This document shows positions 1,975 to 31,490 of a stretch of 31,490 nucleotides of DNA, piece after piece. Position 1 is the first letter of the stretch; every line of letters starts with the position of its first letter. The stretch is from IMG/VR virus record IMGVR_UViG_3300029779_000023; one strand, written 5' to 3'. The notes under the pieces were generated by a model that worked only from the letters and a program-made list of their open reading frames with translations, had not been told where the DNA came from and made no database searches. The translations under genes and the position numbers were made by a program. This DNA is from a virus.

Positions 1975-2006
1975 AAAAACAAGGCGACGGGATAGCCCGC
2001 CGCCTT
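1975..2006 (-). terminator. Terminator of the XRE repressor gene
   Basis: Hairpin at 1981-2006 (11 bp, one mismatch, loop 4 nt) is followed on the minus strand by GTTTTTATGATTTTTT. Confidence 0.6.
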
Positions 2007-2248
2007 TATTCGTCCCCTAAAAGCCAATCAACCGAAACGCCCAGCACCTTTGCAAATATCTTTAATTCAAAGTCGGATACAAAGCGCGTTCCGATCTCTA
2101 TTCGGCTTATGCTGTCCCGCTCCATATTAACGCCCTGCGTCTGTACCTTTGCGGCTAAATCCTCTTGCCGTAAACGCTGGATCACCCGCGCTTGACGCAA
2201 TCGTTCGCCGCAAATATTCTTTTTCCCGTTATAGTCGTATATCTTCAT
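2006..2248 (-). CDS. XRE (Cro/CI-type) helix-turn-helix transcriptional regulator, 80 aa
   Basis: ICGERLRQARVIQRLRQEDLAAKVQTQGVNMERDSISRIEIG is a canonical XRE HTH. The gene is monocistronic between its own promoter and terminator. Confidence 0.85.
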   Translation of the reverse strand: MKIYDYNGKKNICGERLRQARVIQRLRQEDLAAKVQTQGVNMERDSISRIEIGTRFVSDFELKIFAKVLGVSVDWLLGDE

Positions 2249-4587: not shown

Positions 4588-4881
4588 TTACTTGCTGATT
4601 TGCTGTTCGATATGGTCAAGTCGTTTATGTGCCTGTTTTGCAGACGCTTCAACGGAAACAAGCCTTCCGACGAAATCGGTATTCGTCTTTCTCTGTTCCC
4701 GTTGTTCCGCCTTTACGTCGTCAATGCCGCCTTTTATGTATCCCAATTCGGTTAGAATTGTTGCGTCGCTCTTCGCTTCTTTGGTCTTGTCGCTGTCCCT
4801 ATTACGGACAAAAGCGATATACCCAAACACGATTGCGCAAACGGTACTGATAACAGATAAAACGGTCATTGCATTTTCCAT
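4588..4881 (-). CDS. Membrane-anchored coiled-coil lysis-associated protein (XhlA/BhlA-like topology), 97 aa
   Basis: N-terminal TM VLSVISTVCAIVFGYIAFV followed by a charged coiled-coil tail. RBS AGGAGG lies 7 nt before ATG 4881. It is the first gene of the lysis cassette. Confidence 0.45.
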   Translation of the reverse strand: MENAMTVLSVISTVCAIVFGYIAFVRNRDSDKTKEAKSDATILTELGYIKGGIDDVKAEQREQRKTNTDFVGRLVSVEASAKQAHKRLDHIEQQISK

Positions 4882-5948: not shown

Positions 5949-6114
5949 AGAACCTCCCGCGTCCGCCTTTCGCTTTCTGCTACTAACCAGCCGCGTCCCT
6001 TTTCGTATTTGCCCAGCGGTATTCCTCCGCCAAGACGGGCAAAGCGTTCTGACTAATGGTATTTGCATTAGTTGTGCCGTTGCTCCGTAAAGCAACACGC
6101 CTAAAAGTTTCCAA
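5949..6114 (-). ncRNA. TR-to-RT spacer of the DGR RNA (structured)
   Basis: Non-coding 166 nt with three hairpins: 6079-6096 (6 bp), 6052-6072 (7 bp) and 6009-6042 (6 bp outer plus 4 bp inner). Confidence 0.5.
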
Positions 6115-6232
6115 GTCACAGGCGCACCGCGCGCCGATGCTCGGGTTCACGTCCCACGGGTAGTTGTTCAAGCGGACGGCGCGCGCCCCGGCGTGAACGC
6201 CATTGTGCCAGTTGCCGCCGCCGAGAAGGGCG
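6115..6232 (-). repeat. DGR template repeat (TR), RT-proximal copy
   Basis: 118 nt with 104 identical to 6678-6795 at a fixed offset of 563. It is non-coding, between avd and the RT gene. Confidence 0.85.
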
Positions 6233-6259
6233 CAGAATTAACAACGCTTTGCCCAAATG

Positions 6260-6601
6260 TCAACGCCCGCTTTGCGCAAACTTTATCAGCCCGCCGAGAA
6301 GCGAACCGATTTCAGCGATCTTCCCGCATATCACGCCGTATTGCTTCGGATTGATATATCGGAGATCATGCGCAAGGCGGATCAACATTTTTAATTCCTC
6401 TATGAGAACGTCCGCTTCGTATAGGTTGGATTTCTTCGCCGTGCTTTTGTTTGCCTTGATAACGCACCGTTCCAAATCTATCACGCAATTTTTGATTTGC
6501 GTTTGAAGCGTGAATTTCTCATACTTCGGGAACTTTGCAATTATGGGATAGAGGTACAAGAGAAAATCGTATACCTTTTGATACAATACCAGCTTTTCCA
6601 T
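6260..6601 (-). CDS. avd: Accessory variability determinant (Avd-like four-helix-bundle protein), 113 aa
   Basis: Size, position between VR and TR, and sequence (YQKVYDFLLYLYPIIAKFPKYEKFTL...) typical of the Avd / 23S-rRNA-IVS protein family. Confidence 0.8.
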   Translation of the reverse strand: MEKLVLYQKVYDFLLYLYPIIAKFPKYEKFTLQTQIKNCVIDLERCVIKANKSTAKKSNLYEADVLIEELKMLIRLAHDLRYINPKQYGVICGKIAEIGSLLGGLIKFAQSGR

Positions 6602-6617
6602 GTGTCAAAGTCCCTTC

Positions 6618-6647
6618 AAAAATAGGGGACGGGCTTTCGCCCGCCCC
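6618..6647 (-). terminator. GC-rich hairpin with GAAA loop downstream of VR (terminator-like; candidate DGR target-recognition hairpin)
   Basis: Minus strand reads GGGGCGGGC-GAAA-GCCCGTCCCC (9 bp, one bulge, 6625-6647) followed by TATTTTTG. It lies 30 nt beyond the VR 3' end. Confidence 0.6.
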
Positions 6648-6668
6648 GTCAGATATTCAGATAACAGA

Positions 6669-7862
6669 TTACAGACTGTCACAGGCGCACCGCGCGCCGA
6701 GGTACGTGTACACGTTCCACGGGTAGAAGTACAAGTTGACGGCGCGCGCCCCGGCGTGAACGCCATCGGACCAGTTGCCGCCGCCGAGAAGGGCGACAAG
6801 CGAATAATCGTTGTACTGATAAATATTTCCGTATCCGTCGCCGAACGGGGAAGTTGTGTCCCAGCCCCATACACCGTCGTTCGTTGCGTGATAGTGTCCA
6901 TTCCCGTTTGTGTACTCTTTTCCTGCGCGCCCGCCGTCGTATGAAGGGAATGTTCCGCTTCCGTTCAGCTTTACGTGTTCCGCCCGCGTGATAAGCTCGT
7001 TCAGCCATTCCCATACATTTCCGACGCAATCGCGGCAACCGATCGAAGAAACGGCATTTGCGACGTATCCGGTTTTCTGCCTTCCGGTGTTTCCGGTCGC
7101 GCTCCATGCGTTCGTGTTGCTGTCCGCCATCCCCTGCGGGCTTCCGAAAGCCGCCATGCAAAACTCTTCGTATGTCAGAAGGCGCTTGCCGGATACAAGG
7201 GCGCGTTCAACGAACCCGTACCAATTCAAGCCTTCCGTTCCGGTCATCGGTGTGGCGTTATAGGCGGAAGCAAGCCCGCCCGCTCCGTCGTCGGAAGAAA
7301 GGTAAATATCAACCCATGTCCCGTTTGCGAGATAGACCATGCCTTCGGGATTGCACTTCGGACGATGTGCCAGCGTCCAAACGGAACGTGGAACGATACC
7401 GTCGAACACGGAACTTTCCCAGTTTGTGCCGCGTACCGCGCCGGAAGCGTTCACAGGCGCAAGCGCGGCGTTCACTTTGCGGCACTTACCGTAATGGAAG
7501 CCGCCGATCTTGCGGCTGTTTGCCGCTCCGTAGCCCGCCGGGTAGGTGGAATTCAGCGAAATTTTATAAACTTCGTCGTTACCTTCTCCCGCGTCGCACA
7601 GGAAAATATAATAATCCTTTCCGACGGTGAAAGCCGCCCCGCTGTCAAGATCAGCCGCCGAAAGTGCGGTGTTTTCGGTCTTGAACACGCCGCCGCCGAA
7701 AATGGAGAAGATACAACCTTCTTCGATCTGCAACGTGTCGCTTCCGATCACGGTGATATACTGCTTGATCGGAATTGCCGTTTCGGAAAGTGTGGCGATC
7801 TTGCCCGTGTTAAGCAGGGCGCGGGGATCGCGGTTTACGAAATCATTTGTCAGAAAGCGCAT
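6669..7862 (-). CDS. DGR target: tail-fibre / receptor-binding protein with an FGE-sulfatase / C-type-lectin-like C-terminal domain (397 aa)
   Basis: GCRDCVGNVWEWLNE and the C-terminal GGGNWSDGVHAGARAVNLYFYPWNVYTYLGARCACDSL are typical of DGR variable proteins. It is the last structural gene after the fibre genes. Confidence 0.85.
   Translation of the reverse strand: MRFLTNDFVNRDPRALLNTGKIATLSETAIPIKQYITVIGSDTLQIEEGCIFSIFGGGVFKTENTALSAADLDSGAAFTVGKDYYIFLCDAGEGNDEVYKISLNSTYPAGYGAANSRKIGGFHYGKCRKVNAALAPVNASGAVRGTNWESSVFDGIVPRSVWTLAHRPKCNPEGMVYLANGTWVDIYLSSDDGAGGLASAYNATPMTGTEGLNWYGFVERALVSGKRLLTYEEFCMAAFGSPQGMADSNTNAWSATGNTGRQKTGYVANAVSSIGCRDCVGNVWEWLNELITRAEHVKLNGSGTFPSYDGGRAGKEYTNGNGHYHATNDGVWGWDTTSPFGDGYGNIYQYNDYSLVALLGGGNWSDGVHAGARAVNLYFYPWNVYTYLGARCACDSL
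6678..6795 (-). repeat. DGR variable repeat (VR) at the 3' end of the target gene
   Basis: Matches the TR at 104/118 positions. The 14 mismatches sit in 10 codons. The 3' end carries a 15-nt GC-rich block GGCGCGCGGTGCGCC (plus 6684-6698). Confidence 0.85.
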
Positions 7863-19835: not shown

Positions 19836-21488
19836 TCACCCCGCATTTTTCAGCATTTCGCCGATCTCGTTATAATACTTCTGCCGTACTGTCATAGCGT
19901 CGATCACGGAAACGAAGCCGTCGATACGCGCCCGCTGTTCGATTTTTACCGGACGGAATTTTCGCGTTTCCATATTGTGCTTTAACGCGACGTTAAGGAA
20001 ATGTGCTTTCAGAAGGTTATTATCCGCGATCTTGAAATTGCCGTCTTTGATTATGCCTTCAAATTCTCGGATAACGGGCGCAAGGTTTTCACCCTGCCAT
20101 ACGTCGTCCGTCTGGAAGCCCGCCGCCTTCAAGTCGTCAATCAGGTATTGCGCGCTGTAACGGTCATACCCGATCTTTAGGATATAAATTCCGTACTGAT
20201 CCCGAAGGGTAGAAAACCATTCGTAAACGTCCCTGTAATCGACGTGATTTTCGCCGGACAGCTTCACGATCCCTTGCTTGACGAAAATATCATACGGCAC
20301 GCCGTCCACCGCTTGCGCGGTTTCCAGCCTGTTCGCGGGCATAAAGAATTGTGTGAAGGCATACAGCACGCCGCCGCGCTCGATTATCACCGAAGCGGCG
20401 GTCAAGTCTGTTGTTTGCGATAGGTCGATACCGCCCACCGCGTAGCTGTCTTTGAAATCCTCCAGCTTTATTTTTTCTCCCGCTCGATCTACGACGACAT
20501 AATCAAGCCAAGCGACGGAAGAATTCTGCTTGATATTGCAGTATTTGCAAAGGAATTCAGCCCGCTTTGAAAGGCTCATTTCCGCAACGGCGATTTCCTC
20601 TTTGAAGAACTCCGGCGAAACGGAAACGCCCATATTCGGATTTGCTTTTTTAAGCTCTTCAAGGTCGTTCCATTTCTCCACGTCGTCGATCATATAAAGC
20701 AGGGGAAGAAGGCGGCGTTCCTTGCTTCCGCCTTTCAAAAACGCCGTAGAACGCGCCATCAATTCGTCGAAGATACCGTCGTTTTCATATCCCGCCGTGC
20801 TGATAGACAGGATCAGCGGCTGGCGGCGCGCGCCAAGCGCGGATTTCATAACTTCGTATTGCTTCAAGCCGCCGTCGCCGCGCCACGACGCTACTTCGTC
20901 GTTCACAACCAAATGCGGATTGAAGCCGTCCGATTTCTTCGCGTTGAACGCCAGCGGCTTTATCGCCGTGTTGCTTTCCTCGATGTAAATATCCGAACGG
21001 CGCTTCTTCGCAAGCTCTGAAAGCTCCGGTTCTTTTTTAATCATCTGGAAGAAGTTATCGTAAACGATGTTCGCTTGTTCCAGCTTCGGCGCAAGGCAAT
21101 AAATCTTTGCGCCGTATTCGCCGTCAAGATAAGCCATATAAGCGATCACGGCGGAAGCGAAAAGCGTTTTGCCGTTTTTCCGCCCGATCACAATGAACAC
21201 TTCGCGGAATATCCGCACGTTATCTTCGTCAACAATCCCGAAGATCAGCGATACCGCCGCTTTCTGCCATAGTTCCAATTTCAGAAGGTCGGTTCGTCCT
21301 TCGCAATGGTGGCAGAAGTTTTCGATAAAGCGAATTGCCTTGTTCGCCTTCTTTGCGTTGAAAAGAAAAAGCCCGTTTTGAAGCCCGCTAACGATGTATT
21401 CATAGATCAGCCGCACCCATTTTCCGACGACAATTTTTCCCGTCGTTATGCCGTCGTAATACTCGTAAATGTAATTTGAAAACGGCAT
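19836..21488 (-). CDS. terL: Terminase large subunit
   Basis: 550 aa from ATG 21488. Walker A-like VIGRKNGKT. Its position is upstream of the portal gene. Confidence 0.9.
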   Translation of the reverse strand: MPFSNYIYEYYDGITTGKIVVGKWVRLIYEYIVSGLQNGLFLFNAKKANKAIRFIENFCHHCEGRTDLLKLELWQKAAVSLIFGIVDEDNVRIFREVFIVIGRKNGKTLFASAVIAYMAYLDGEYGAKIYCLAPKLEQANIVYDNFFQMIKKEPELSELAKKRRSDIYIEESNTAIKPLAFNAKKSDGFNPHLVVNDEVASWRGDGGLKQYEVMKSALGARRQPLILSISTAGYENDGIFDELMARSTAFLKGGSKERRLLPLLYMIDDVEKWNDLEELKKANPNMGVSVSPEFFKEEIAVAEMSLSKRAEFLCKYCNIKQNSSVAWLDYVVVDRAGEKIKLEDFKDSYAVGGIDLSQTTDLTAASVIIERGGVLYAFTQFFMPANRLETAQAVDGVPYDIFVKQGIVKLSGENHVDYRDVYEWFSTLRDQYGIYILKIGYDRYSAQYLIDDLKAAGFQTDDVWQGENLAPVIREFEGIIKDGNFKIADNNLLKAHFLNVALKHNMETRKFRPVKIEQRARIDGFVSVIDAMTVRQKYYNEIGEMLKNAG

Positions 21489-21490
21489 TT

Positions 21491-21844
21491 TTATTCGTCC
21501 CGCAAGGCTTGCAGACGGCTTTCTTTTTTCTTTTCGGGCGGCACAAGCTCGCAAAGCTGTTTGATTATGGCGGCGTGATTTTTCGTCATAGCGATATGCG
21601 TTTTTACTGCGTCGCTCTGTTTTGTCCCGCTCTGATTTGCGCCGTTTTGGTATTCGACGGTGTAACCCTCTTCGTTAATGATTTCCTGCAACTCTTCAAG
21701 GGATACCGCCATAAATGCGGCGTTGCGGATAAGGCTTTCGACGGTCTGCAACTTGTTTTTATCCAAGTCGCGGAAAACCCGCTTTAATCGGTTTATCTCT
21801 CTCTTAATCTTTTGATCTTTCGTTAAGTCCTTCTTTGTCGCCAT
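21491..21844 (-). CDS. terS: Terminase small subunit (P27 family-like)
   Basis: 117 aa from ATG 21844 (RBS AAAGGGGTGA), between the HNH and TerL genes. Confidence 0.75.
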   Translation of the reverse strand: MATKKDLTKDQKIKREINRLKRVFRDLDKNKLQTVESLIRNAAFMAVSLEELQEIINEEGYTVEYQNGANQSGTKQSDAVKTHIAMTKNHAAIIKQLCELVPPEKKKESRLQALRDE

Positions 21845-21921
21845 AATTATCACCCCTTTTCGGCGGATACCTACACCCCTTTTTCGCGTACACCCGTTAT
21901 GCGCGCGCCTGCGGAGTAAAA

Positions 21922-22269
21922 TTAACCTCCCGCCCTCGGTGTTTCACCCTCCCTAAATCCTCGGCGAATAGGGGGGAGTATCACGTTTCCGTTTTCGTCA
22001 AACGAATATCGCTTTTTCCGCTTCGATCGATGGTGTTCTTTGTTATGGCAATCTTGACAAAGCGCTTCGAGATTATCCCACGAAAGCGCAATGTATGGAT
22101 CGTTTACGTTTTGCTCTGTCAAGTATGTTTTGTGATGTGCAATCTTTGCGGCGACGGGATCGTCCGGTGTAGAACAACGTTCGCACAAGTAGCCCTTTGA
22201 TTGCAAGAAGGCATCACGGCAAGAACGCCAAGCGTCGCTGTTGTAGAACTGTTCTGCCCACGGCTTCAT
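21922..22269 (-). CDS. HNH endonuclease (terminase-associated)
   Basis: 115 aa from ATG 22269. CERC...HHKTY...CQDCHNKEHH is an HNH / zinc-finger pattern. Confidence 0.85.
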   Translation of the reverse strand: MKPWAEQFYNSDAWRSCRDAFLQSKGYLCERCSTPDDPVAAKIAHHKTYLTEQNVNDPYIALSWDNLEALCQDCHNKEHHRSKRKKRYSFDENGNVILPPIRRGFREGETPRAGG

Positions 22270-22291
22270 ACTCGCACCTTCCTTTCCCGCG

Positions 22292-22332
22292 CATAATAAA
22301 AGCGCCCTTCCGGATTGCTCCGAAAAGGCGCT
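22292..22332 (-). terminator. Intrinsic terminator inside the late-operon leader
   Basis: The 22301-22332 hairpin has 13 pairs, two of which are G-U only on the minus-strand RNA. It is followed by TTTTATTAT and lies between the late promoter and the HNH RBS. Confidence 0.6.
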
Positions 22333-22372
22333 ATTCGTGCGCTTGCGTCTTGCGTAAGAATTCATCGTAAAC

Positions 22373-22401
22373 AGTATAGCATAGATATATTCCCCTTGCC
22401 A
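22373..22401 (-). promoter_or_regulatory. Late promoter candidate (good extended -10, poor -35)
   Basis: Minus strand reads TGGCAA (22396-22401), 17 nt, TGcTATACT (-10 at 22373-22378). Confidence 0.5.
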
Positions 22402-22406
22402 CCCCT

Positions 22407-22427
22407 CGATATTGTCGCGATATTGTC
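22407..22427 (-). repeat. Tandem 10-nt repeat at 11-nt spacing just upstream of the late -35 (candidate activator site)
   Basis: CGATATTGTC at 22407-22416 and 22418-22427 (minus strand GACAATATCG twice). Confidence 0.6.
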
Positions 22428-22429
22428 AT

Positions 22430-23044
22430 TTATTCGCCCGCCTTGCGCCTGTACGTTGCCGCACTCACCGCCGCCGCGATCCCGAATACGCATACCGCCA
22501 TATCGTTTACGATCTTGTTCCGCCATCTGCACGCGGTCTTTACGCCCTTCAAAACGCCCGCTTCTTCAAGGTCGAAGGCTAATTCCTCCCACGTGTAGGG
22601 CTTGCCGCTCTCGCGCGGCTTGCCTTCGTAATCCTCGCCGAAGTAGTACATACGAACCACCGTGAATTCCTTGCGGTCGCGGTAAAGGTTTATAGCCCTC
22701 TCCAGCCGCTCGAAGCCGTACTTCGTTTCCCGATACTGCCGCCTTTTTTCTTCCCGCATTTCCTCGACAATATCGGCTTCGGTTCTCTGCTCATAAAATC
22801 CCGTGCTTTTGCTCCCCGCCGCGAAGGTCTTTCGCCCTGCGTGATATTCCACTTCGCAATAGGCTTCTTCATTAGCGACAAGCGCCGCCAGCTTCTTGTA
22901 GTTATACAAAAGCGTTTCCATAGCCTTGAAGTAATTGACATACGCGCCCGCCGTGTCTTTGTATGCTTCATACGCACCCGCGCGGGCGGCTTCGTTGATC
23001 GCTTCGCGCAACTCTTCGGAAATGCCCGTTTTTTTCTTCGCCAT
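22430..23044 (-). CDS. Putative late-gene transcriptional activator (ArpU/RinA or sigma-70 region-4-like)
   Basis: 204 aa, immediately upstream of the packaging genes. It has the LLYNYKKL motif and a C-terminal HTH-like segment TWEELAFDLEEAGVLKGVKTACRWRNKI. Confidence 0.45.
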   Translation of the reverse strand: MAKKKTGISEELREAINEAARAGAYEAYKDTAGAYVNYFKAMETLLYNYKKLAALVANEEAYCEVEYHAGRKTFAAGSKSTGFYEQRTEADIVEEMREEKRRQYRETKYGFERLERAINLYRDRKEFTVVRMYYFGEDYEGKPRESGKPYTWEELAFDLEEAGVLKGVKTACRWRNKIVNDMAVCVFGIAAAVSAATYRRKAGE

Positions 23045-23047
23045 TTT

Positions 23048-23446
23048 TCAGCCCTCCGTTTTCCGCTGTAAGTAGTCGATAATCACGCTTGCGGCTTCCT
23101 GCCAGCCCTTGCAGATTGCCGCCGCGTAACCCTGTTCTAAAAGCCCGTCGATCCAGCGCACCTGTTCTTCGCTGATCCTCCCGCCGCGTTGCCGTTTAAG
23201 CTCGATATAAAGCCCGTGATTTCCGCCGCGTGCAACGGGAAGGCAAAGATCCGGAACGCCGGATTTCACGCCCTGCGCCCGAAGGCGTGCCGCCTCGATC
23301 TTGTTTCTGCTCCCGCCGTTCGGAACGTGATACAAAAGCGCCAATTCCGGAAAGCGCCCCGATTGAAGCGCCGCCCACTCGAAAAGCGCGATTTGTTCGT
23401 CCGCTTCCGTAGGAACAGGAAGGGAAGGCGTGTTATTTTTCCGCAT
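23048..23446 (-). CDS. VRR-NUC domain nuclease
   Basis: 132 aa from ATG 23446. EADEQIALFEW...HVPNGG...GVKSGVPDLCL...GLYIELK pattern. Confidence 0.75.
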   Translation of the reverse strand: MRKNNTPSLPVPTEADEQIALFEWAALQSGRFPELALLYHVPNGGSRNKIEAARLRAQGVKSGVPDLCLPVARGGNHGLYIELKRQRGGRISEEQVRWIDGLLEQGYAAAICKGWQEAASVIIDYLQRKTEG

Positions 23447-23753
23447 TTTGCTTCGCCTCCCAATCGTTGAAGAAGAAAAACGGCTTCTTCTGCGCCACCG
23501 CTTCGCCGAACTCATATTTTGCGCCCCTGCTTTCCGTCCAATCCGGAAGGAAGCATACTTCGGCGCATTCGTTCAGCATTGCGCCCGCCATTCGCATATA
23601 CGCTTCCCACGTGAAGCCCTCCGAAGGCAGTAACGCCGGATTGACGACAATAAAGCCGCCTTCCTCCAGCTTCTTCTGCGCTTCATAGAATTTTGAGCGG
23701 TAGAACGGATCGCCCGTAATCTTCCCCGCAAGGTAAACTGTCTTTTTCTGCAT
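23433..23753 (-). CDS. DUF4406 / nucleoside 2-deoxyribosyltransferase-like protein
   Basis: 106 aa from ATG 23753 (RBS GGGAGG). Motifs VYLAGKITGDP...VVNPA...LPDWTESRGAKYE. Confidence 0.65.
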   Translation of the reverse strand: MQKKTVYLAGKITGDPFYRSKFYEAQKKLEEGGFIVVNPALLPSEGFTWEAYMRMAGAMLNECAEVCFLPDWTESRGAKYEFGEAVAQKKPFFFFNDWEAKQNAEK

Positions 23754-23770
23754 TGTTTTTCCTCCCTTCG

Positions 23771-24460
23771 TCAAAACAGCGTTGTTTGCGTTGCCTTTTC
23801 CTGTTCCTCCAGCAGATCAAACAGGCGGATTTGCGCTTTCTCTTCTTCAAGCCGCCTGTTCGCCGCCTCGAAATATTTTGTATTGATTTCAAAGCCCACG
23901 TAATCAAGCCCGCCGATCCGCTGGCAAGCGACAAGGGAACTTGCGCTTCCGGCGTGCGTGTCTAAAATCTTCATACCCTTTCGGGCAAACAGGGATAAAA
24001 CCCATTCATACAGCTTCACGGGCTTTTGCGTAGGGTGGATCGTCCCTTCGATCTGCAATTCCACGCGGTTAAGCGTGAAAATCCGTGTCGGCGTGTCAAA
24101 GCTGGTATATGCAAGCTCACAATCAGACATTGAAAGCCCGCGTTGCCCCTTGTCCCATACAAGCCAGCCTTTATGCGCCTGTTTCAGCATCGGAACAAAG
24201 TAATTCCCGCCCCAAATGATTTGTTCACGGGATACCCGTTCAAGCTCTCGGAAATATTCTTCGGTCGGCGGCTTGTTGTCCCAGCCTTCCCGCGAATGCT
24301 CCTTCCGGTTATGCTTCGGATTTCTGCAAACGCGCTTCCGCTGTCCGTCAATCCCGATCCCGTAAGGCGGATCGACGATTGCAAGGTCGAAGAACCCGTC
24401 CGGAAATTCCTTCATTCCCTGCATACAGTCCAGATTATAAAGCCTGTTCAATTCAAGCAC
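23771..24460 (-). CDS. DNA methyltransferase, beta-class N6_N4 family with DPPY motif (likely N6-adenine)
   Basis: Proposed GTG start at 24460, 9 nt after GGAGG. Motif IV IVDPPYG precedes motif I-like LDTHAGSASS. The upstream part of the track ORF is Arg-rich and lacks an RBS. Confidence 0.8.
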   Translation of the reverse strand: MLELNRLYNLDCMQGMKEFPDGFFDLAIVDPPYGIGIDGQRKRVCRNPKHNRKEHSREGWDNKPPTEEYFRELERVSREQIIWGGNYFVPMLKQAHKGWLVWDKGQRGLSMSDCELAYTSFDTPTRIFTLNRVELQIEGTIHPTQKPVKLYEWVLSLFARKGMKILDTHAGSASSLVACQRIGGLDYVGFEINTKYFEAANRRLEEEKAQIRLFDLLEEQEKATQTTLF

Positions 24461-24841
24461 CGTCGATCGCCTCCTTCCTCTCTTTTTTCTCCCACCCCTC
24501 CGCCCCTCCCGCTGGGAGGGGAACAGGCTCAAAGGAATAAACCCCGCGCCCGATCCTTTATGCACATTTCCCCAGCCTTCATTGTGGAAAAGTGCAAGCC
24601 GCCTTGATAGATTTTCTTTCCCCGTCGCCGCGCTGTTCCTATCACTCACGCTTCACCCCGTAAAGGTCAAGCGGCTTCGCCGTGCTTCGCAACCTTGACG
24701 GGCTGAACCGTTCGTGATCTCTGATAAACAGGCGACGGGGAATAAACGAAAATCTATCTTCAAGGCTTCTTCTGTGATCGAAGCTGTGCTTCGTCGCCAA
24801 ACGTTACACATTTACAAGGCTTTAGAAATGCTGATCCGAAA

Positions 24842-25597
24842 TCAGCCTTTACCGTCCTTCGCCGCTCGTTTCCGTTTGCACTTCGGCGGCTCTAACACAT
24901 ACTTAAAATAAAGGTATCCATACTTCGTACTTTTCGTTTCTACTAATATATAGCCCTTCGGCGGGCGCGGCGGCTTGCTCTCCGTGTAAACCCTCTTTGC
25001 AACGGTCGGCGTTTCCCGATCCGGCTTCCGCGCGTTGCGCGTCTGCTTCCAGCGGTGTCCGCCTTGTTCCTTCGTCCAATGGTCGAAAAGGTAATTTGCA
25101 AGCCCTGTGTAATCCTGCCCGTGATCCACGCCGTCGTAATAGTTATGTTCGCGAAGGTGGTTGATCCGGACGATATTTCCGTAAATCCATTGTTTCTTGA
25201 TTGCTTCTTCCGGCACGCCGTCCGAAAGCATATGCGCGTGAATTCTGTTCGTGTTCTTGCCGCGTCCTAAATAAATGAAGATCACGGCATCGGGGAAGGC
25301 GTATTTCAGCCGCCGCACGAATAGATCGCGTATCCGCTTCGCTTCCTTGAAGGTATGTACTTCGTTTTCGTCGTCCAGCGTCAGCGTGCTATATAATGAA
25401 CGCGGGGAAAAGTTTTCATTTACCAGCCGCGCGTGTTTCCGTCTTGATATTCCGATCTTGTGTTGTTCTCGCTCTTCCTCTGTCTTAAAGCGCGGGCGCG
25501 GTTCAGCCTTCTTTATATCGGTAAGCCTGTCCGATACGTTGAAAACCTCCTGTTCGCACACAACGCCCGAAAAAATCCTTCTTTTTACTCTCTGCAT
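24842..25597 (-). CDS. HUH-superfamily rolling-circle replication initiator-like protein (251 aa)
   Basis: Motif I-like LYSTLTLD, HUH motif RIHAHMLS and a Tyr motif GLANYLFDHWTK, in canonical order. Confidence 0.6.
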   Translation of the reverse strand: MQRVKRRIFSGVVCEQEVFNVSDRLTDIKKAEPRPRFKTEEEREQHKIGISRRKHARLVNENFSPRSLYSTLTLDDENEVHTFKEAKRIRDLFVRRLKYAFPDAVIFIYLGRGKNTNRIHAHMLSDGVPEEAIKKQWIYGNIVRINHLREHNYYDGVDHGQDYTGLANYLFDHWTKEQGGHRWKQTRNARKPDRETPTVAKRVYTESKPPRPPKGYILVETKSTKYGYLYFKYVLEPPKCKRKRAAKDGKG

Positions 25598-25615
25598 ACG
25601 TCAAGCCGCCTTCCT

Positions 25616-25644
25616 TTGACAAAAAGCCGCTTTCGTGCTATACT
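25616..25644 (+). promoter_or_regulatory. Near-consensus sigma-A promoter on the plus strand
   Basis: TTGACA (25616-25621), 17 nt, TGcTATACT (-10 at 25639-25644). Confidence 0.7.
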
Positions 25645-25650
25645 ATCTAA

Positions 25651-25728
25651 TGTATTGAATAGCCTTATACGGCAACCCCGAACGGGGAAGAACCGTCCTG
25701 TACGCCCATACAGGACGGTTCTTTTTTT
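25651..25728 (+). ncRNA. Small antisense RNA (~78 nt), countertranscript to the Rep-gene leader
   Basis: Starts about 7 nt after the -10 box. It contains a weak 5' stem-loop (25652-25670), the CCCC-GAAC-GGGG hairpin (25677-25688) and a perfect 13-bp terminator stem (25690-25721) followed by T7 (25722-25728). The T-run is present only on this strand. Confidence 0.65.
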
Positions 25729-25730
25729 AT

Positions 25731-26111
25731 TTATCCATTGTTCAGCCCGTCGCCCTGCACGAACTCTTCGCATTGCGGTTCCTCGCAAGGCTTGAAGCGC
25801 ATTCCGTTTTCGCAACCTACGCACGGGGAAGGGCGCACCCCGTCCGGCGTGAAGCCCTCGCGGATCTTCTCGCATTCCTCCAGCCGCGCGCATTGATCGC
25901 ACCAGCACTTCCGGCAATCGCCGATTTCCGTTTTAACGGAACGTTCCCGTTCCTCTTCGGTTTTCCGGATTTCGCGGATCGCGGTTTCCTCCAGCATAAC
26001 GTCGTAAGCGTCCATACCCGCTTGAAAGCCTCGGATCAGCGCCGCAACCGCGAAGCCCAGCGCCGCGCCCGCTTCTTCAAGCGCTTCTGCGTTCAGCTTA
26101 ATTTCGCTCAT
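25731..26111 (-). CDS. Hypothetical Cys-rich protein (126 aa)
   Basis: RBS AAGGAG before ATG 26111. Multiple CxxC-type pairs in the C-terminal half. Confidence 0.6.
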   Translation of the reverse strand: MSEIKLNAEALEEAGAALGFAVAALIRGFQAGMDAYDVMLEETAIREIRKTEEERERSVKTEIGDCRKCWCDQCARLEECEKIREGFTPDGVRPSPCVGCENGMRFKPCEEPQCEEFVQGDGLNNG

Positions 26112-26292
26112 TCCCGCTTCTCCTTTGCATATCTGCGTTGTAGCTGTATCCGGTATTTTTCTTCGTGCCGCGCTTCCCGCAAGTGCGGAAGATCGCGACG
26201 ATCACGCAATAGATAACCAAAACCGCCGCCGCAATGCAGATAATCCCGCAAAGCAGGAAAAAGGCGTTTTGCATAAATTCAAACATTGTCAT
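26098..26292 (-). CDS. Small membrane protein (about 64 aa)
   Basis: One long hydrophobic span FFLLCGIICIAAAVLVIYCVIVAIF. The start at ATG 26292 is uncertain. Confidence 0.45.
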   Translation of the reverse strand: MTMFEFMQNAFFLLCGIICIAAAVLVIYCVIVAIFRTCGKRGTKKNTGYSYNADMQRRSGNERN

Positions 26293-26605
26293 TAAGTACA
26301 ACCTTCTTTCCCTCCATTACGCCAGCTTCTTTTAAGCGCTTGCGTAAATGCTTTTGCTGTGCAAGGATCGAAAGGGCGCGGCGCTCGTTCTGTCTGTACT
26401 GCTTCGCTATATCCTTTATATCCTCGCTTTGATAGTATCCAGCGCCGTCCTGCGCGTTAATAATGATCGCGCCCCTGCGCCGTGCCTGTTCGATTTCTTC
26501 ACGTATCTTCCGATCCGGCAAGCCCGTTGCCGCGCGAAGGTGTGCGCGTGTTACCGCGTTTTCCTTGCCGAACGGAATATAATCTGTAATGCTTGCCGCC
26601 CGCAT
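26279..26605 (-). CDS. Hypothetical protein, possible winged-helix DNA-binding protein (108 aa)
   Basis: ATG 26605 with RBS AAAGGAG. The functional call is weak. Confidence 0.5.
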   Translation of the reverse strand: MRAASITDYIPFGKENAVTRAHLRAATGLPDRKIREEIEQARRRGAIIINAQDGAGYYQSEDIKDIAKQYRQNERRALSILAQQKHLRKRLKEAGVMEGKKVVLNDNV

Positions 26606-26610
26606 TTCCG

Positions 26611-27480
26611 TTATTCTCCTTTCTCGAATACCTCTTCCGGTTTGATGTTCCACGCCGCCGCAATATGCTTCATCATATCGACGGCTTCGGCGCGCTTCTT
26701 CATATCCCCGTCAAGGTAAGATTTCAAGATTTCCGATTTCAGAACGCAAAGCGGGCGAACGCCGCCGCTCCCGTGGTACGCGTAGCTGTTGTACAGCGCA
26801 CCGTCGGAATAGACGTAGCGGACGAATGAATTTTTCGGGCTGTCCGGTGTAGCTGTCCACCACCAAGTGTCCGGAAGCTCCGGAATGTTGCCGCGAAGAA
26901 GCCTGTATTCGTCGCACGTGATAAGCCCGACGCGGACGCAATCGCCGCCGTAGTCCTTCAAGCCGTCGTCGGCGGTCAAGTCAACGTTGAAATACTCGAA
27001 CATTGCTTCCGGCGCTCCCGCTCCGATCAGCTTTTGCAGGAATTCGCCGTTCAAGAACTCGCGAATATCGGACGCGGCGAAATCGTTTCGGTTCTTCGTG
27101 TCAAAAGCGCCGTTTCCGATACACTCCGAAGCAATGCACTTCACCCAGCTTTCGGCGGTCTGAATGATTGTAAAGGCGATCCCGCCGATCGTGATTTCCT
27201 GTTTCGGCATAAAGCCGTGTTTGTTCTCTGTCATATTGAAAACCCCCTTTCTTTCCTCGGGCGGTTCTCCCGCTCGATCAATGATCCTGTTAATGTACCA
27301 AATAGCCTTTTGTAAATCCTCTTCACCGTTCTTGCGCTTCCAACGCCACAAGTATTTGATCGCGTTTGCCGTGCAGAAGGCTTCGATCCCTTCAAGCCCG
27401 ATTGTCGCCGCCTCCAGCGCGTCGATACACTCGATCCCGCCCGCGTTGTAATGCGCTGGGTGGTTTACCCGCTCCGCCAT
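26611..27480 (-). CDS. DUF3310-domain protein fused to a C-terminal Trp-rich domain (289 aa)
   Basis: The N-terminus VNHPAHYNAGGIECIDALEAA...NAIKYLWRWKRKNGEEDLQKA is DUF3310-like. The C-terminal half carries the TWWWTATPDS and GGVRPLCVL motifs. Confidence 0.65.
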   Translation of the reverse strand: MAERVNHPAHYNAGGIECIDALEAATIGLEGIEAFCTANAIKYLWRWKRKNGEEDLQKAIWYINRIIDRAGEPPEERKGVFNMTENKHGFMPKQEITIGGIAFTIIQTAESWVKCIASECIGNGAFDTKNRNDFAASDIREFLNGEFLQKLIGAGAPEAMFEYFNVDLTADDGLKDYGGDCVRVGLITCDEYRLLRGNIPELPDTWWWTATPDSPKNSFVRYVYSDGALYNSYAYHGSGGVRPLCVLKSEILKSYLDGDMKKRAEAVDMMKHIAAAWNIKPEEVFEKGE

Positions 27481-27482
27481 TG

Positions 27483-27815
27483 TCAACACTTCTTCCCGCC
27501 GTGCCTGTACGGGCGCGTTCTGTTATATTCGTGCTTCTGCGAAATTGCCGCGTCAATGTCAATTCCGGCATATCCGCAATAATCAAGAACGCGGATAATC
27601 ACGTCGGCAAGCTCGATCGGTATTCCTTCCGGCTTCCCGTTGTTTCCGGCGTAAACCTCCGTAGGCAAGCGCCCGTTGCGGTATTCCTCCAGCGCTTCGG
27701 ATACCTCCGAATGAATGAGCGCCAGCACTTCGGGGAAGCCGCGTTCTTCGTCCCACCAGCCGTGATCGACGGCGTTTTCGTGAATTTGCTTTGCAACCTC
27801 GTTAATTCCCGTCAT
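27483..27815 (-). CDS. MazG-like nucleotide pyrophosphohydrolase
   Basis: 110 aa from ATG 27815. LIHSEVSEALEE...PEGIPIELADVIIRVLDY pattern. Confidence 0.7.
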   Translation of the reverse strand: MTGINEVAKQIHENAVDHGWWDEERGFPEVLALIHSEVSEALEEYRNGRLPTEVYAGNNGKPEGIPIELADVIIRVLDYCGYAGIDIDAAISQKHEYNRTRPYRHGGKKC

Positions 27816-28143
27816 TATCGTTTTTCCTCTCTTTCCGTTTGTCTTTCGGCTCTCCGCCGTCGTTGTTCGTGTTCCTACAATCGCACGTTTCCCCGTTGTC
27901 AAGGTGTGCGCCGCAATGGTCGCATACTTTGTACTTCATTTCTTCGTTACCTCCGTTCTTTGGAATAATCAGACGGCGCAACCCGTCCGCGCATAGCGTC
28001 AAACCGTGTTCGCGAAGATAGGCGCGGCGGCGTTCCGCCTCTGCCGCTTCCCAGCCGCAAGTAGGGCATTCGGAAGCGTTGCATTTCTGAACCTTTTTCG
28101 GATCAATCCCTAAAAGGCAGATATATTCGTGTTTCTCACTCAT
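27802..28143 (-). CDS. Hypothetical Cys-rich (zinc-ribbon-like) protein, 113 aa
   Basis: CPTCGW and CDHCG...CDC clusters. Its start ATG overlaps the stop of the restored Dam frame. Confidence 0.6.
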   Translation of the reverse strand: MSEKHEYICLLGIDPKKVQKCNASECPTCGWEAAEAERRRAYLREHGLTLCADGLRRLIIPKNGGNEEMKYKVCDHCGAHLDNGETCDCRNTNNDGGEPKDKRKERKNDNDGN

Positions 28144-28559
28144 TTTTCACCCGCTCCCCGTTATAGATAACTACCATAGAAGGGAAGGGCGCGGGATCGC
28201 TGGCGTTCCCTTCGTCGTCTGTAAAGCGAAGCCGCCCGCGAACGAAGCGGATTTCTGCTTTCTCGTATATGTAATCGTGAAAATAGGCTGTATCCGTTCG
28301 AGCGGGAATAAGCAGTACAATAGCGTACCCCCCCGCGTGCTTCTTCGTATGCCTTCTTTACCCACTTTCCGATCTCGCGTCCGTAAGGCGGATTGCAGAA
28401 AACCGCGCCGCCGCGATCCCAGCTTTGCGAAAGCCCGTCCGTTTCCGGCGTATAGTAAAGCGGGCATTTTGCCGTTTTGTCTGTCGCCGCCGCGTCAAGC
28501 ACGAAGCCGAATTCTTCGTTCAGATGGTCGAAGAAGTCTTGCGGCGTACACCAATCCAT
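28136..28559 (-). pseudogene. Phage Dam-family DNA N6-adenine methyltransferase interrupted by a frameshift in a G7 run
   Basis: The N-terminal part, MDWCTPQDFFDHLNEEFGFVLDAAAT...FCNPPYGREIGKWVKKAYEEARGG, is in one frame. After C7 at 28328-28334, the family-like continuation YAIVLLIPARTDTAYFHDYIYEKAEIRFVRGRLRFTDDEGNASDPAPFPSMVVIYNGERVKNE is in the next frame and ends at TGA 28136-28138. Alternative starts are GTG 28589 and ATG 28610. Confidence 0.8.
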
Positions 28560-28581
28560 TTTCTTTGAAGATAGAAGCGCA

Positions 28582-28797
28582 CTATTCACCGCCGCCAGCC
28601 TCCTTTTCATCGGAATATACACGGACAACCGCCGCAACCTGTTCAAAGTCCAGATAGACGGGCTTGTTTTCCGTGATCCCTTCAATGTTGTATCCGGTCG
28701 CCTGTCCGAATGCGTTTCGCGTAATCGTGAACTTGTCGCACTTGATAGCGAATTCCGAACCGCTCTTCAAGATAACGCGGATCGTCATTTTAGGCAT
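28582..28797 (-). CDS. Hypothetical protein (71 aa)
   Basis: ATG 28797 with RBS GAGGTGG provided by the junction cassette. Confidence 0.55.
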   Translation of the reverse strand: MPKMTIRVILKSGSEFAIKCDKFTITRNAFGQATGYNIEGITENKPVYLDFEQVAAVVRVYSDEKEAGGGE

Positions 28798-29455
28798 TGT
28801 CCGCCACCTCGCTTTCGTCCTCGACGATCTCACCCGTAGCAGGATCGACGTTCAAGGAATATTGTTCCGGTTCTGCGGCGCGTGCCAGCTCTTTCTCCCG
28901 CTCCCGAAGGTCAAGGGAAAGAACGCATTGTTCCGTAAGCCTCTTCAAGTTATCGACAAACTGCTGGCTAATCACGTCATACGGCATAATTACCGCTTGA
29001 AGCAGGAAGCCCGCTTTCGCTACGATGTAGGGCGTTCCGCCGGGCGTGATCCGCTCGTATAGCTCCAGCACGTCTAAAATATCGGATACGGGCGAAAGAT
29101 AGCGGCTTTCGATGAACACAAGCCCGCGCCGCGTCTGCAACGGCTTCAAGGTCTTTCCGGAATAGGCGATCGAAATTGCTTCCCGCTCGACGGGCTTTTC
29201 GTTTGCGTCCATATCCTCGAAGCTGATTTCCGAAGGAATGCCCGCTACTTGAACGAACCAATCTTCCCGCTGTTTTTCCGGAACGTCGAAGATCGTTAAA
29301 AGGCTTTCTTTATCCAGCGCCGGAAGCCCCGTTACCGGATAAGCCGCCGCGCCGTCGCCGATGTATTGAACAACGCCGCCGCCTTCGGTGTACCGCTCAT
29401 AAATAACGGCGTATTTGTTCTTCTTGCAGATCGCCGCGATATTTTTAATCTTCAT
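28790..29455 (-). CDS. Hypothetical protein (221 aa)
   Basis: ATG 29455 with RBS GAGGTGG. The track ORF has a 26-codon extension with no RBS. Confidence 0.6.
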   Translation of the reverse strand: MKIKNIAAICKKNKYAVIYERYTEGGGVVQYIGDGAAAYPVTGLPALDKESLLTIFDVPEKQREDWFVQVAGIPSEISFEDMDANEKPVEREAISIAYSGKTLKPLQTRRGLVFIESRYLSPVSDILDVLELYERITPGGTPYIVAKAGFLLQAVIMPYDVISQQFVDNLKRLTEQCVLSLDLREREKELARAAEPEQYSLNVDPATGEIVEDESEVADNA

Positions 29456-29699
29456 CTTCCGCCACCTCGCTTTCGTCTGCGTCGTCCCGCTCCGTAATCG
29501 GTGGAAGGTCAACGCGGGGAAAACGTACCGCAAGCGCGATTTGACAACCGCAACGCGGGCAATCCATAGCGCTAAACCGCATCGGCGGTTTTGTCAGCGC
29601 GTCCATAAATCCGCGCGGTTCCTCTGCAACGTAGATTTCTTCCTTTGTCGGTGTTACGCGGTATCCGCAAACGCCGCACGTCTTTTTCTTTGTAAACAT
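29445..29699 (-). CDS. Zinc-ribbon protein (84 aa)
   Basis: ATG 29699 with RBS GGAAAGGGG. CGVCG ... CPRCGC motifs. Acidic tail DESEVAEDED. Confidence 0.55.
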   Translation of the reverse strand: MFTKKKTCGVCGYRVTPTKEEIYVAEEPRGFMDALTKPPMRFSAMDCPRCGCQIALAVRFPRVDLPPITERDDADESEVAEDED

Positions 29700-29719
29700 A
29701 TTGAATAGCCCCTTTCCGG

Positions 29720-30034
29720 TTAATATCTGCCGTAAACCCGAACGACGGTGAAGGGCTTGTCCGCCTTCGTCGTCGTTACGATTGCCGAAGTCATAAAGGA
29801 CACGCGCAAGAAATCCCGCGCCGCCCGCTTTGCAAGCCTCCACGTAATCATTCGGGCGTTAGGTTCCTGCATTGCGTTGCTGTCCAGCGGATATTCGCAA
29901 ATAAGAACCGTGTTCCCGAACGGTCGCCGCGCCGGACGTTCCTTCATAAACTCTTTGTTTCCCTCCTTGCACTTCACAATTTCAAGCGCCTTCGGGAACT
30001 GCCAGCCGCTGTCCTGCTTCTTTTCTTTTGCCAT
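29720..30034 (-). CDS. Hypothetical protein (104 aa)
   Basis: ATG 30034 with RBS GAGAGGGG. Confidence 0.5.
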   Translation of the reverse strand: MAKEKKQDSGWQFPKALEIVKCKEGNKEFMKERPARRPFGNTVLICEYPLDSNAMQEPNARMITWRLAKRAARDFLRVSFMTSAIVTTTKADKPFTVVRVYGRY

Positions 30035-30051
30035 AATTGCCGCCCCTCTCT

Positions 30052-30306
30052 TCAAATCTGAACCAAATTCAAAGCCGAAATAAGCCGATCCGTAATCTGC
30101 TTCCGGTGTAACTGCTTCAAGATCGTTTCTTCGTTTGCGTCGTAGTTTGCGGCAAGCGTTACGAAATACTTTAATTCCGGATTTACTCTTTGCCGAAGCC
30201 CAAGACAGAAAAGAAGGCGATCCGTTACTTCCGCTTTAAGCGGATACACGGCAATTTCTCCCGTGCTTTTGTTGATCTCTCTGCAAAGGCATATCATTTC
30301 GCCCAT
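30052..30306 (-). CDS. Hypothetical protein (84 aa)
   Basis: ATG 30306 with RBS GAGAGGGG. The longer track ORF would overlap the hydrolase gene. Confidence 0.5.
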   Translation of the reverse strand: MGEMICLCREINKSTGEIAVYPLKAEVTDRLLFCLGLRQRVNPELKYFVTLAANYDANEETILKQLHRKQITDRLISALNLVQI

Positions 30307-30320
30307 AGCCGCGCCCCTCT

Positions 30321-30908
30321 CTAATCGTCGTAAGGATTTTGCAAGCTCCAATCCCACGTTTCAGCGTCTTTCCAGCCGATCGTGAAATGATTGTTCCGCC
30401 CGTCGCCCGTGAAGTACAGGTATTCAGCCGGAAGAACCCGCCCGACGTTTTCTTCGCCGTTTTTCTCTGCGTGATAGCGTTTCAGCACGTCAGCCGCCAG
30501 CGCGGCAAGTTCTGGAAGAACGGGATAATTCGCCGAATATCCGGCGAATTGATAGGGCGCTTCTAAAACCTCCAGCACCGTGTCGGGGAAGCGCGGATCG
30601 TCAACGCGGTTCAGCACGCACCAAACGCACGCGGCTTTTTCCATATCCGAAGCGATCCCGCGTGCTTCTCCGTAAAGCATCTTCGCAAGCGCTTCAACCT
30701 CTGCCGCGTCCGGTATGTATTCCGGCTCTTCCTCTTCCGGCGCAAGCGTCAGGATCGGGGAAGGGGATATGATCGACGAAGGTTCCGCCGACGAACGCGG
30801 CATTTCCTCCGCCGCGTTCGTTCCGTTCCACGGCATAAAGGCGGCAAACGGGATCGCGACGATCACCAGCGAAAGAACCGCCGCGAACTGCCTTTGTTTC
30901 CTCTTCAC
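30321..30908 (-). CDS. Secreted or membrane-anchored cell-wall hydrolase, SleB/CwlJ (Hydrolase_2) family
   Basis: GTG start 30908 in a GTGA overlap with the upstream stop. N-terminal signal or anchor FAAVLSLVIVAIPFAAF. LAKMLYGEARGIASDMEKAACVWCVLNRVDDPRFPDTVLEVLEAPYQF matches the family core. Confidence 0.7.
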   Translation of the reverse strand: MKRKQRQFAAVLSLVIVAIPFAAFMPWNGTNAAEEMPRSSAEPSSIISPSPILTLAPEEEEPEYIPDAAEVEALAKMLYGEARGIASDMEKAACVWCVLNRVDDPRFPDTVLEVLEAPYQFAGYSANYPVLPELAALAADVLKRYHAEKNGEENVGRVLPAEYLYFTGDGRNNHFTIGWKDAETWDWSLQNPYDD

Positions 30909-31126
30909 ATTGCCACCCCGCTGTCCGCTTCAAGGGATAGCCACCATTCGGGATTATTCCGGAAGCGCTCATTCCTGCAAGCGTCGCAATTCTCCGCCCC
31001 GCACCCGCTACAATATCGCTTTTGAAACTCCATATCCCACGGCGCTTCGATAATCGGAAGGGAACGCAAGAACCGCCCCAGCCCTTGCGCGTCCGTCGCG
31101 ATTGCTTCAAAATTTGTCTTGCTCAT
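30905..31126 (-). CDS. Hypothetical Cys-rich protein (73 aa)
   Basis: RBS GGAGGG before ATG 31126. CSGCGAENCDAC cluster. Confidence 0.55.
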   Translation of the reverse strand: MSKTNFEAIATDAQGLGRFLRSLPIIEAPWDMEFQKRYCSGCGAENCDACRNERFRNNPEWWLSLEADSGVAM

Positions 31127-31147
31127 ATTGAATAGCCCTCCTTCCTT

Positions 31148-31402
31148 TTATCTTTCAGCGGCGGCGCGTCTGTTGCCTCTGCGCCGTATGTTTTCCTGTG
31201 CGGTCGTCTGTGCAAGATCGGCGCTGTAAATCGGACGCTTGTTTTCGTCAAGCTCTCCCGTGTATCCGCGTTTAAGCTCTTCGTAAATAGCGGCAACGCT
31301 CCTTCCGATCTTTGCGGCAATATCCACCGCCCGCTCGCCGTCGCTGTAAAGTGCTTCGATTTCGCGGCGCTGATCGAACGTCAAATACGAATATCCGTCC
31401 AT
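31148..31402 (-). CDS. Stand-alone HTH protein homologous to the N-terminal DNA-binding region of IS30-family transposases (84 aa)
   Basis: ATG 31402 with RBS AAAGGAGG. YLTFDQRREIEALYSDG...IAAKIGRSVAAIYEELKRGYTGEL...YS...ENIRRRG aligns with HLTWTDRLKIEKALKEG...IADRLHVHNSTIYRELKRGTYTHL...YS...ENLAAKG of the 180-1214 transposase. Confidence 0.7.
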   Translation of the reverse strand: MDGYSYLTFDQRREIEALYSDGERAVDIAAKIGRSVAAIYEELKRGYTGELDENKRPIYSADLAQTTAQENIRRRGNRRAAAER

Positions 31403-31490
31403 TTCGCAAGCCTCCTTTCGCCGTCCGGATAAAAAAATAAAGCAGGAAAACCCGTTTCGGTTTTCTCTGCTTTTAATGTTACTCCGCACA
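31368..31490. repeat. Terminal direct repeat or assembly overlap, copy 2 (identical to 1-123)
   Basis: Exact 123-nt identity with the window start. Confidence 0.95.

Follow-up and report, generated by a model that had tools for sequence, protein, structure and literature searches.

Control of rep genes by antisense RNA is textbook material in plasmids and, to our knowledge, has barely been documented in tailed phages. Small phage RNAs such as P22 sar, P1/P7 c4 and P4 CI pair with the ribosome-binding site (RBS) or the leader of genes for early or anti-immunity functions; the targets of c4 and CI are short repeated sequences, and both RNAs are processed from the operon that they control. In the enterobacterial small RNAs RybB and OmrA, a conserved single-stranded 5′ seed is followed by a variable middle and a terminator hairpin, and the seed pairs near the starts of several mRNAs.

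The plasmid countertranscripts that are directed against rep leaders, namely pT181 RNAI, pIP501 RNAIII, pSK41 RNAI and pMV158 RNAII, measure 48–87 nt (PMC5703833). RNAI of pSK41 is about 83 nt long, is composed of a 5′ tail and two stem-loops, and has its target about 100 nt upstream of the RBS (PMC5703833). In Cluster K mycobacteriophages, Start-Associated Sequences (SAS) were reported, an asymmetric motif located a few bases upstream of the ATG in a subset of non-structural genes (PMC3203893). The motif occurs in one orientation before genes of different families, and whether its binder is RNA or protein was left open (PMC3203893).

The window, which is the whole stretch of DNA analysed here (31,490 nt), is a siphovirus-type phage genome with nearly all of its genes on the minus strand. 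Its first 123 nt recur exactly at its end (1–123 = 31368–31490), and this terminal overlap indicates that the assembly is circular and the genome complete, with a unit length of 31,367 bp. The genome also contains a diversity-generating retroelement on the minus strand (4866–7862), made up of a reverse transcriptase (4866–6119), a bAvd-like gene (6260–6601) and an mtd-like tail protein (6669–7862); these assignments come from PHROG matches and from Pfam labels on identical prophages. In the replication block, a promoter-to-terminator unit runs against the rep gene. The reading preferred here, to which a probability of roughly 0.6 is given from the sequence evidence, is that the unit encodes a cis-antisense RNA of about 78 nt against rep that also represses early-gene ribosome-binding regions in trans. 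The features of the locus are the following.

24842–25597, minus strand: rep, 251 aa, the cis target; ATG at 25597, with the leader from −54 to −131 complementary to the RNA.
25598–25615, minus strand: ribosome-binding region of rep; SD GGAAGG, 11 nt, then the ATG; it abuts the −35 box of the opposite strand.
25616–25621, plus strand: −35 hexamer TTGACA, whose first five letters, TTGAC, do not vary among the 15 distinct sequence types.
25636–25644, plus strand: extended −10 element TGcTATACT, 17 nt of spacer away from the −35; TGCTATA[A/C]T is invariant.
25650–25728, plus strand: predicted non-coding RNA of about 77–79 nt, its start placed 6–8 nt past the −10 and its end at the T-run.
25653–25664, plus strand: single-stranded 5′ seed UAUUGAAUAGCC, with the invariant core TTGAATAGC at 25655–25663.
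25676–25687, plus strand: small internal hairpin CCCC-GAAC-GGGG in the predicted fold.
25688–25728, plus strand: intrinsic terminator with arms at 25688–25702 and 25709–25723, a 6-nt loop and T7 at 25722–25728.
25731–26111, minus strand: 126-aa Cys-rich gene upstream of rep, whose stop codon (25731) abuts the terminator T-run.

The 251-aa Rep matches PHROG 3584 (replication initiation protein) with E = 8e-39, and Pfam REP_ORF2-G2P weakly, at 20.3 bits and thus under the cutoff of 27.8. It carries an HUH-like IHAHM motif and the Tyr motif YGYLYFKY. A homologous 297-aa HUH Rep (26% identity, E = 1e-8) reaches 51.5 bits with REP_ORF2-G2P, above the Pfam threshold. By sequence motifs and profiles, the window Rep therefore has the HUH motif, the catalytic Tyr motif and the family profile match of HUH rolling-circle Reps. 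An earlier note on this DNA had called the slot between rep and the 126-aa gene the only intergenic gap in the replication block; this is roughly right, and the apparent gaps nearby are in fact occupied by small ORFs at 24653–24811 (52 aa) and 26098–26301 (a 67-aa membrane peptide).

The promoter elements, TTGACA-17-TGcTATACT on the plus strand at 25616–25644 with the −35 box 19 nt from the rep start codon, were found just as the earlier note had described them. With a score of 11/12 plus the TG extension, the promoter outranks every other match in 20000–31490. Matches of at least 11/12 number three in the whole window, and the other two (1670–1699, plus strand; 1942–1914, minus strand) both lie in an Xre/RHH switch region. 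Transcription would thus start at a near-consensus extended −10 sigma-A promoter and end at the unit's own intrinsic terminator, antisense to the early operon. The predicted RNA (25651–25728) folds at −35.8 kcal/mol, with z = −6.9 against shuffles. In the predicted folds of other sequence types the internal hairpin is replaced by pairing of an anti-SD CUCCUUUU with a purine run.

An Rfam scan, which the earlier note had proposed, gave no match at the gathering threshold across the whole window, plasmid antisense families such as ctRNA_pT181, ctRNA_pGA1, ctRNA_pND324, RNAI and CopA included; at a permissive E-value all that appeared was terminator-driven, namely RefA9 at 23 bits (threshold 49) and STnc240 at 20 bits (threshold 55). 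No tRNA or tmRNA was found by ARAGORN. The coding potential of the plus-strand transcript amounts to ATG-TAT-TGA, which is not conserved, and by inspection neither the start nor the frame of a mini-ORF that would begin at the pseudo initiation region of the rep strand (see below) is the same from type to type. A protein-coding role was hence rejected, there being no conserved ORF on either strand. A literature search found no description of the RNA or of the start-associated motif treated below; the RNA family is undescribed among phage sRNAs and absent from Rfam. The existence of the RNA is well supported and judged to be quite probable, and the unit, which runs from promoter to terminator antisense to the leader of rep, very likely represents a genuine RNA gene under selection.

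No rep-sense promoter of at least 10/12 was found within 400 nt upstream of rep in 58 loci, and from the sequence rep appears to be transcribed by read-through from the long upstream operon and not from a promoter of its own. Such a transcript would cross the unit. The claim of an RNA antisense to the rep leader held, with perfect complementarity from −54 to −131, a conserved unit and a covarying stem. In cis, the RNA would dampen rep expression by forming a perfect 78-bp duplex with this part of the leader, leading to RNase III cleavage or to refolding of the leader. RNA polymerase at the small-RNA promoter would cover the SD and ATG of rep, and convergent transcription or promoter occupancy would add to the effect. 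Since the leader is perfectly complementary and the promoter abuts the rep RBS, Rep synthesis would be expected to drop.

In the predicted fold of the leader, the rep SD is already held in a weak GCUUUUU/GGAAGGC hairpin. The seed of the RNA is predicted to form only about 5 bp with the rep ribosome-binding site itself (−11 kcal/mol), and pairing at that site was rejected. Between the RNA target and the rep ATG, no rep-sense terminator (attenuator) was found in any locus; the sole candidate, read from the sequence and its spacer variants, is a 4-bp hairpin with U5 behind it, and it is not conserved. An attenuator of the pT181 kind was rejected on this ground.

Relatives were collected as loci encoding relatives of Rep in viral and genome collections, together with loci matching the −10 element and the 9-mer that follows it. 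The resulting alignment (A1) comprises 15 distinct sequence types. Its invariant parts are TTGAC, the 17-nt spacing, TGCTATA[A/C]T and the 9-mer TTGAATAGC; the promoter spacer, the 5–10 nt past the −10 and the body of the RNA are variable. The earlier note had suggested that the same promoter-hairpin layout be sought beside homologous rep genes, and it was found in every locus with a Rep at least 77% identical, in a second group of loci described below (clade B) and, with an RNA of the window type, before the divergent 297-aa HUH Rep. The 126-aa gene keeps its place beside the unit in all loci of clade A, the clade of the window's RNA, and of clade B. As layout and position are kept while the sequence drifts, and as the hexamers are invariant around a varying spacer, the unit has the appearance of a functional small transcription unit. 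On sequence grounds, selection acts in many diverged prophages on the promoter, its spacing, the 5′ element of 9 nt and the structure of the terminator.

Clade B consists of loci with Reps 64–75% identical, on Acutalibacteraceae MAG contigs. They have TTGACA-17-TGnTATACT, about 65 nt, a hairpin and T7, in the identical slot abutting the stop codon of the upstream gene, and the transcript is unrelated in sequence to the clade A RNA. The leader of clade B has a conserved inverted repeat, GGCGGTAA/TTACCGCC, that brackets the antisense promoter, with a compensatory variant, GGCGGTGAG/CTCACCGCC, in L054. The repeat is seen at 2895–2965 of L050, and also in L048, L054–L056 and L062. It would form a long-range leader stem whose 5′ arm is the RNA target, so that the small RNA would open it; if modelled in this way, the stem would be a classical arrangement for an antisense-driven structural switch. 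Among Rep relatives at most 70% identical and outside clade B, no antisense promoter at all was found. Many related phages thus do without the RNA, and this Rep family does not require it.

The 9-mer TTGAATAGC is the sole invariant stretch of the transcript. The seed that contains it is unpaired in all predicted folds and always lies within the first 5–15 nt. As an exact 12-mer, TATTGAATAGCC, the seed is found again on the same strand at 29699 and 31126, that is, in two extra copies where 0.026 would be expected. Each of the two is the reverse complement of an early-gene translation initiation region, and these are the candidate trans targets.

29697–29717, minus strand: initiation region of an 84-aa Zn-ribbon-like gene (29445–29699), GGAAAGGGGCTATTCAATATG.
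31124–31145, minus strand: initiation region of a 73-aa gene (30905–31126), GGAAGGAGGGCTATTCAATATG.

The two genes begin with GGAAAGGGG-CTATTCAA-TATG and GGAAGGAGGG-CTATTCAA-TATG, respectively. Their starts belong to a start-associated motif of the form (SD)-CTATTCAA-(T/C)ATG, of which the 5′ end of the RNA is the reverse complement. With the 84-aa gene the RNA is predicted to form a 17-bp duplex from the SD through the AUG (−24.9 kcal/mol), and with the 73-aa gene one of 15–16 bp (−20.8 kcal/mol). The motif heads two to three early genes in each clade A genome for which there is enough upstream flank, and the genes differ between phages. It was counted 35 times in 348 kb of RNA-bearing loci, always on the gene strand and directly before the ATG, and not once in 343 kb of RNA-less relatives; phylogeny is a confounder in this co-occurrence of RNA and motif. 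No trans motif belonging to the clade B RNA was found in the 3-kb flanks examined.

On the rep strand, the copy within the RNA gene reads TAAGG-CTATTCAA-TACAT, a "pseudo" initiation region that has no start codon. The flanks of the motif co-vary within genomes. In the window type, GG precedes and T follows the core both at the RNA locus and at the initiation regions; in the types of L161 and of the related GenBank phage nd12, AAAGGAG precedes and T or C follows it at both, with 16 nt shared; and in L158 an A follows the core at both. When the RNA locus was compared with the initiation regions of the same genome, 59 of the 75 flank differences were A at the locus for G at the target, or C for U, which are exactly the kinds that G-U wobble tolerates in pairing between RNA and target. 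One such tolerated difference is the ATG of the targets against ACA at the RNA locus. Contiguous helices of 14–19 bp are predicted in 43 of 44 distinct pairs. In the trans step proposed for clade A, the seed would act as an anti-ribosome-binding-site element, forming helices of this length over SD, spacer and AUG, and translation of the two to three motif-bearing early genes would be repressed.

Ranked by energy, the two initiation regions (29699 and 31126) are the top trans matches. With 40 shuffled seeds the best genome-wide energy averaged −21.1 (sd 2.3) and reached a minimum of −25.9, against −24.9 for the real seed. Energies of this size arise by chance in this GC-rich genome; hence, the argument for a trans role rests on the position of the exact matches, their recurrence and their co-variation, not on energy. 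A conserved, unpaired seed that is complementary to several initiation regions and co-varies with them was thus found, with an energy control that is not significant. The co-variation comes from few independent lineages and could also reflect concerted evolution of repeated copies, or a protein or ribosome ligand shared by them.

Two further resemblances were seen. Within the DUF3310/DUF6273 gene (27291–27330, minus strand), AAAAGGCUAUUUGGUACAUUA resembles the cis target of the RNA; the duplex (−20.7 kcal/mol) is mostly wobble and probably due to chance. In nd12, a copy of the motif stands at an internal ATG (31531) of a gene homologous to the DUF3310/DUF6273 gene.

Among the other explanations, the one that survives best, though it is still considered unlikely, is that the RNA is a purely cis-acting countertranscript that controls rep alone, by antisense pairing or by interference. 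The leader copy of CTATTCAA would then be a member of the start-motif family acting on the sense mRNA or DNA, as a protein site or as a ribosome standby or decoy, which the RNA merely overlaps. Such a role would agree with the geometry, which fits leader-targeting ctRNAs such as pSK41 RNAI (PMC5703833), with trans duplex energies that are not significant against shuffles, and with clade B, where a trans motif is not detectable yet the 5′ arm of a covarying leader stem is the RNA target. However, a cis-antisense RNA pairs with its target whatever the sequence, so that a purely cis role does not explain why a 9-mer at the unpaired 5′ end should be the one part that never changes. The bias of the flank differences toward wobble-tolerated changes (59/75) also speaks against it, as does the fact that the leader copy never has a start codon.

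The terminator hairpin, a GC-rich stem followed by seven T as the earlier note had it, starts about 45 nt past the −10. Its arms are perfect over 15 nt, or 13 bp when the A-T extension is left out. In the alignment, 9 of the 14 stem pairs have changed on both sides in a compensatory manner and 90% of cells are paired, whereas in a slid control, with the 3′ partner moved by 1–3 columns, 29–53% were paired and 1–3 pairs covaried. A T-run of 5–7 is always present on the RNA strand in the aligned types.

These data bear on a second explanation, in which the hairpin serves the HUH Rep as double-strand origin (nick site), or has some other function at the DNA level, with the promoter-like sequence being incidental. 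RCR plasmids often have an origin hairpin just upstream of rep (PMC5703833). Relatives that lack the antisense promoter keep a GC-rich hairpin there; in L036, L039 and L058 this hairpin covaries and has beside it a shared GCGCAGTTTGTGCCGTG, which may be a Rep origin or an operator. Against an origin stand a stem that changes freely with compensation, loops that differ (CGCCCA, GAACGTCAC, AGGCAAC), the lack of any motif common to clades A and B although their Reps are 64–75% identical, and the conservation of T-run and promoter hexamers on one strand alone. Nick sites are normally conserved. An origin was therefore disfavoured, and it is regarded as highly improbable.

According to the earlier note, the terminator is specific to the plus strand. 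The T7 is indeed on that strand, but the specificity is not strict: past the hairpin the minus-strand tail is pyrimidine-rich (UUCUUCCCC), and in relatives it is more U-rich (CUUCUUUUCC), so that the hairpin may be partly bidirectional. In a third explanation no functional RNA is made, and the hairpin is an ordinary, possibly bidirectional terminator of the upstream early genes, with a promoter of chance or vestigial origin beside it. The hairpin does lie directly 3′ of the stop codon of the 126-aa gene, and its rep-sense tail is U/C-rich (more so in relatives, CUUCUUUUCC and UUCUCUUUUCC). The explanation is scarcely credible, because a chance promoter would not keep its hexamers, TG and 17-nt spacing in 15 types with a drifting spacer or recur with a different transcript in clade B, and only three sites of such quality exist in 31 kb.

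The way in which the phage is maintained was also examined, as the earlier note had seen no tyrosine or serine integrase and had raised the possibility of plasmid-like maintenance. One further feature is relevant here.

180–1214, minus strand: IS30-like DDE transposase, the phage integration enzyme (HTH_38 + rve; PHROG 4646, E = 1.5e-135).

The homologue of this protein in nd12 is annotated as "IS30 family transposase". The exact transposase protein was found in contigs of 73–367 kb, where it marks one end of an inserted prophage and has phage genes to one side and differing bacterial genes to the other: radical-SAM genes, a GH31 glycosidase, a ribosomal-protein operon, rpsO-pnp, aromatic-amino-acid genes and PFOR. 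At its other end the prophage begins some 200 bp ahead of the first early gene; the adjoining genes there are, depending on the sample, those of an ABC transporter, SecA or TGT/QueA. Circular contigs, about 31.4 kb in length, were also found (L204). Of the collection's blocks, 1612 are indexed as containing this exact protein, and the prophage is very common in human-gut assemblies. With a transposase and integration at many chromosomal sites, the phage is a temperate, transposase-integrating element, and the step from a missing integrase to a plasmid prophage is refuted. The phage is a siphovirus whose mode of integration is that of a transposable phage, with its putative ends at about 34–179.

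Two other regions near these ends were noted. The stretch from 1214 to 2408 is likely the lysis-lysogeny switch, with divergent promoters (12/12 at 1670–1699, plus strand; 11/12 with TG at 1942–1914, minus strand), an Xre-type repressor ORF (2006–2248, minus strand), a ribbon-helix-helix ORF just upstream of the transposase and several terminators. A hairpin at 78–99, GGAAAACCCGTTTCGGTTTTCT, flanked by A- and T-runs, lies in the interval bounded by the stop codon of the transposase and the first early gene. This position is close to the prophage ends or right at them, and the hairpin may terminate transcription in both directions and so insulate the early operon.

The early operon lies at one end of the integrated prophage and faces arbitrary host DNA; a constitutive RNA brake would prevent transcription that enters from the host from switching on replication and early functions in a lysogen. 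Being antisense to the rep leader, with a 5′ end that matches the ribosome-binding regions of two or three other early genes, the RNA seems to be a small-RNA brake on the expression of early genes and not a plasmid copy-number device. In a more far-reaching version, which is offered tentatively and is somewhat doubtful, the RNA would be the trans-acting factor of a start-associated regulon, co-repressing unrelated early genes in addition to its cis brake on the rep initiator. U and G at the seed flanks would let it pair, by wobble, with the AUG-less cis copy as well as with the AUG-bearing targets. If the link between seed and motif holds, it gives a concrete explanation for "start-associated" motifs, unexplained since 2011, and shows how a multi-site prophage with its early operon facing host DNA stays replication-silent. 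Integration through an IS30-like DDE transposase also corrects the plasmid-prophage idea.

Compared with the plasmid countertranscripts, the predicted phage RNA is likewise a short untranslated RNA with a strong promoter in the rep leader, an intrinsic terminator and a target upstream of the RBS; in size, architecture and target position, RNAI of pSK41 is the closest to it. It is unlike them in having no Rfam ctRNA match in sequence or structure, in belonging to an integrating prophage and not to a plasmid with a copy number to set, in a rep that is apparently read through from a long operon, and in a seed that matches other genes. With attenuation in pT181 and pIP501 it shares a leader promoter that reads away from rep (here predicted and conserved), whereas the rep-sense terminator before the rep RBS is missing in the phage loci. 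Of the ctRNA-like control proposed in the earlier note, an antisense RNA against the rep leader thus stands, while copy-number control "borrowed" from a plasmid falls, there being no Rfam ctRNA match, no attenuator and no plasmid replicon.

The putative trans role resembles that of P1 c4 and P22 sar. Unlike c4 and CI, the phage RNA has its own convergent promoter and adjoins rep, and its putative targets are the starts of several unrelated early genes. In its 5′ seed, variable middle and terminator hairpin it is like RybB and OmrA, from which it differs in being phage-encoded, in being also cis-antisense to a neighbouring gene and in its Clostridia host. Like the SAS of Cluster K, the motif has one orientation and heads unrelated genes, different ones in different phages; its copies lie directly before the ATG. 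It differs from SAS (GGGATAGGAGCCC) in its sequence, (SD)-CTATTCAA, in its fewer copies (2–3), in the host phylum and in the presence of a candidate complementary RNA in the same genome. As there is no sequence similarity to the mycobacteriophage SAS, the phage motif is an analogue of them and not a member.
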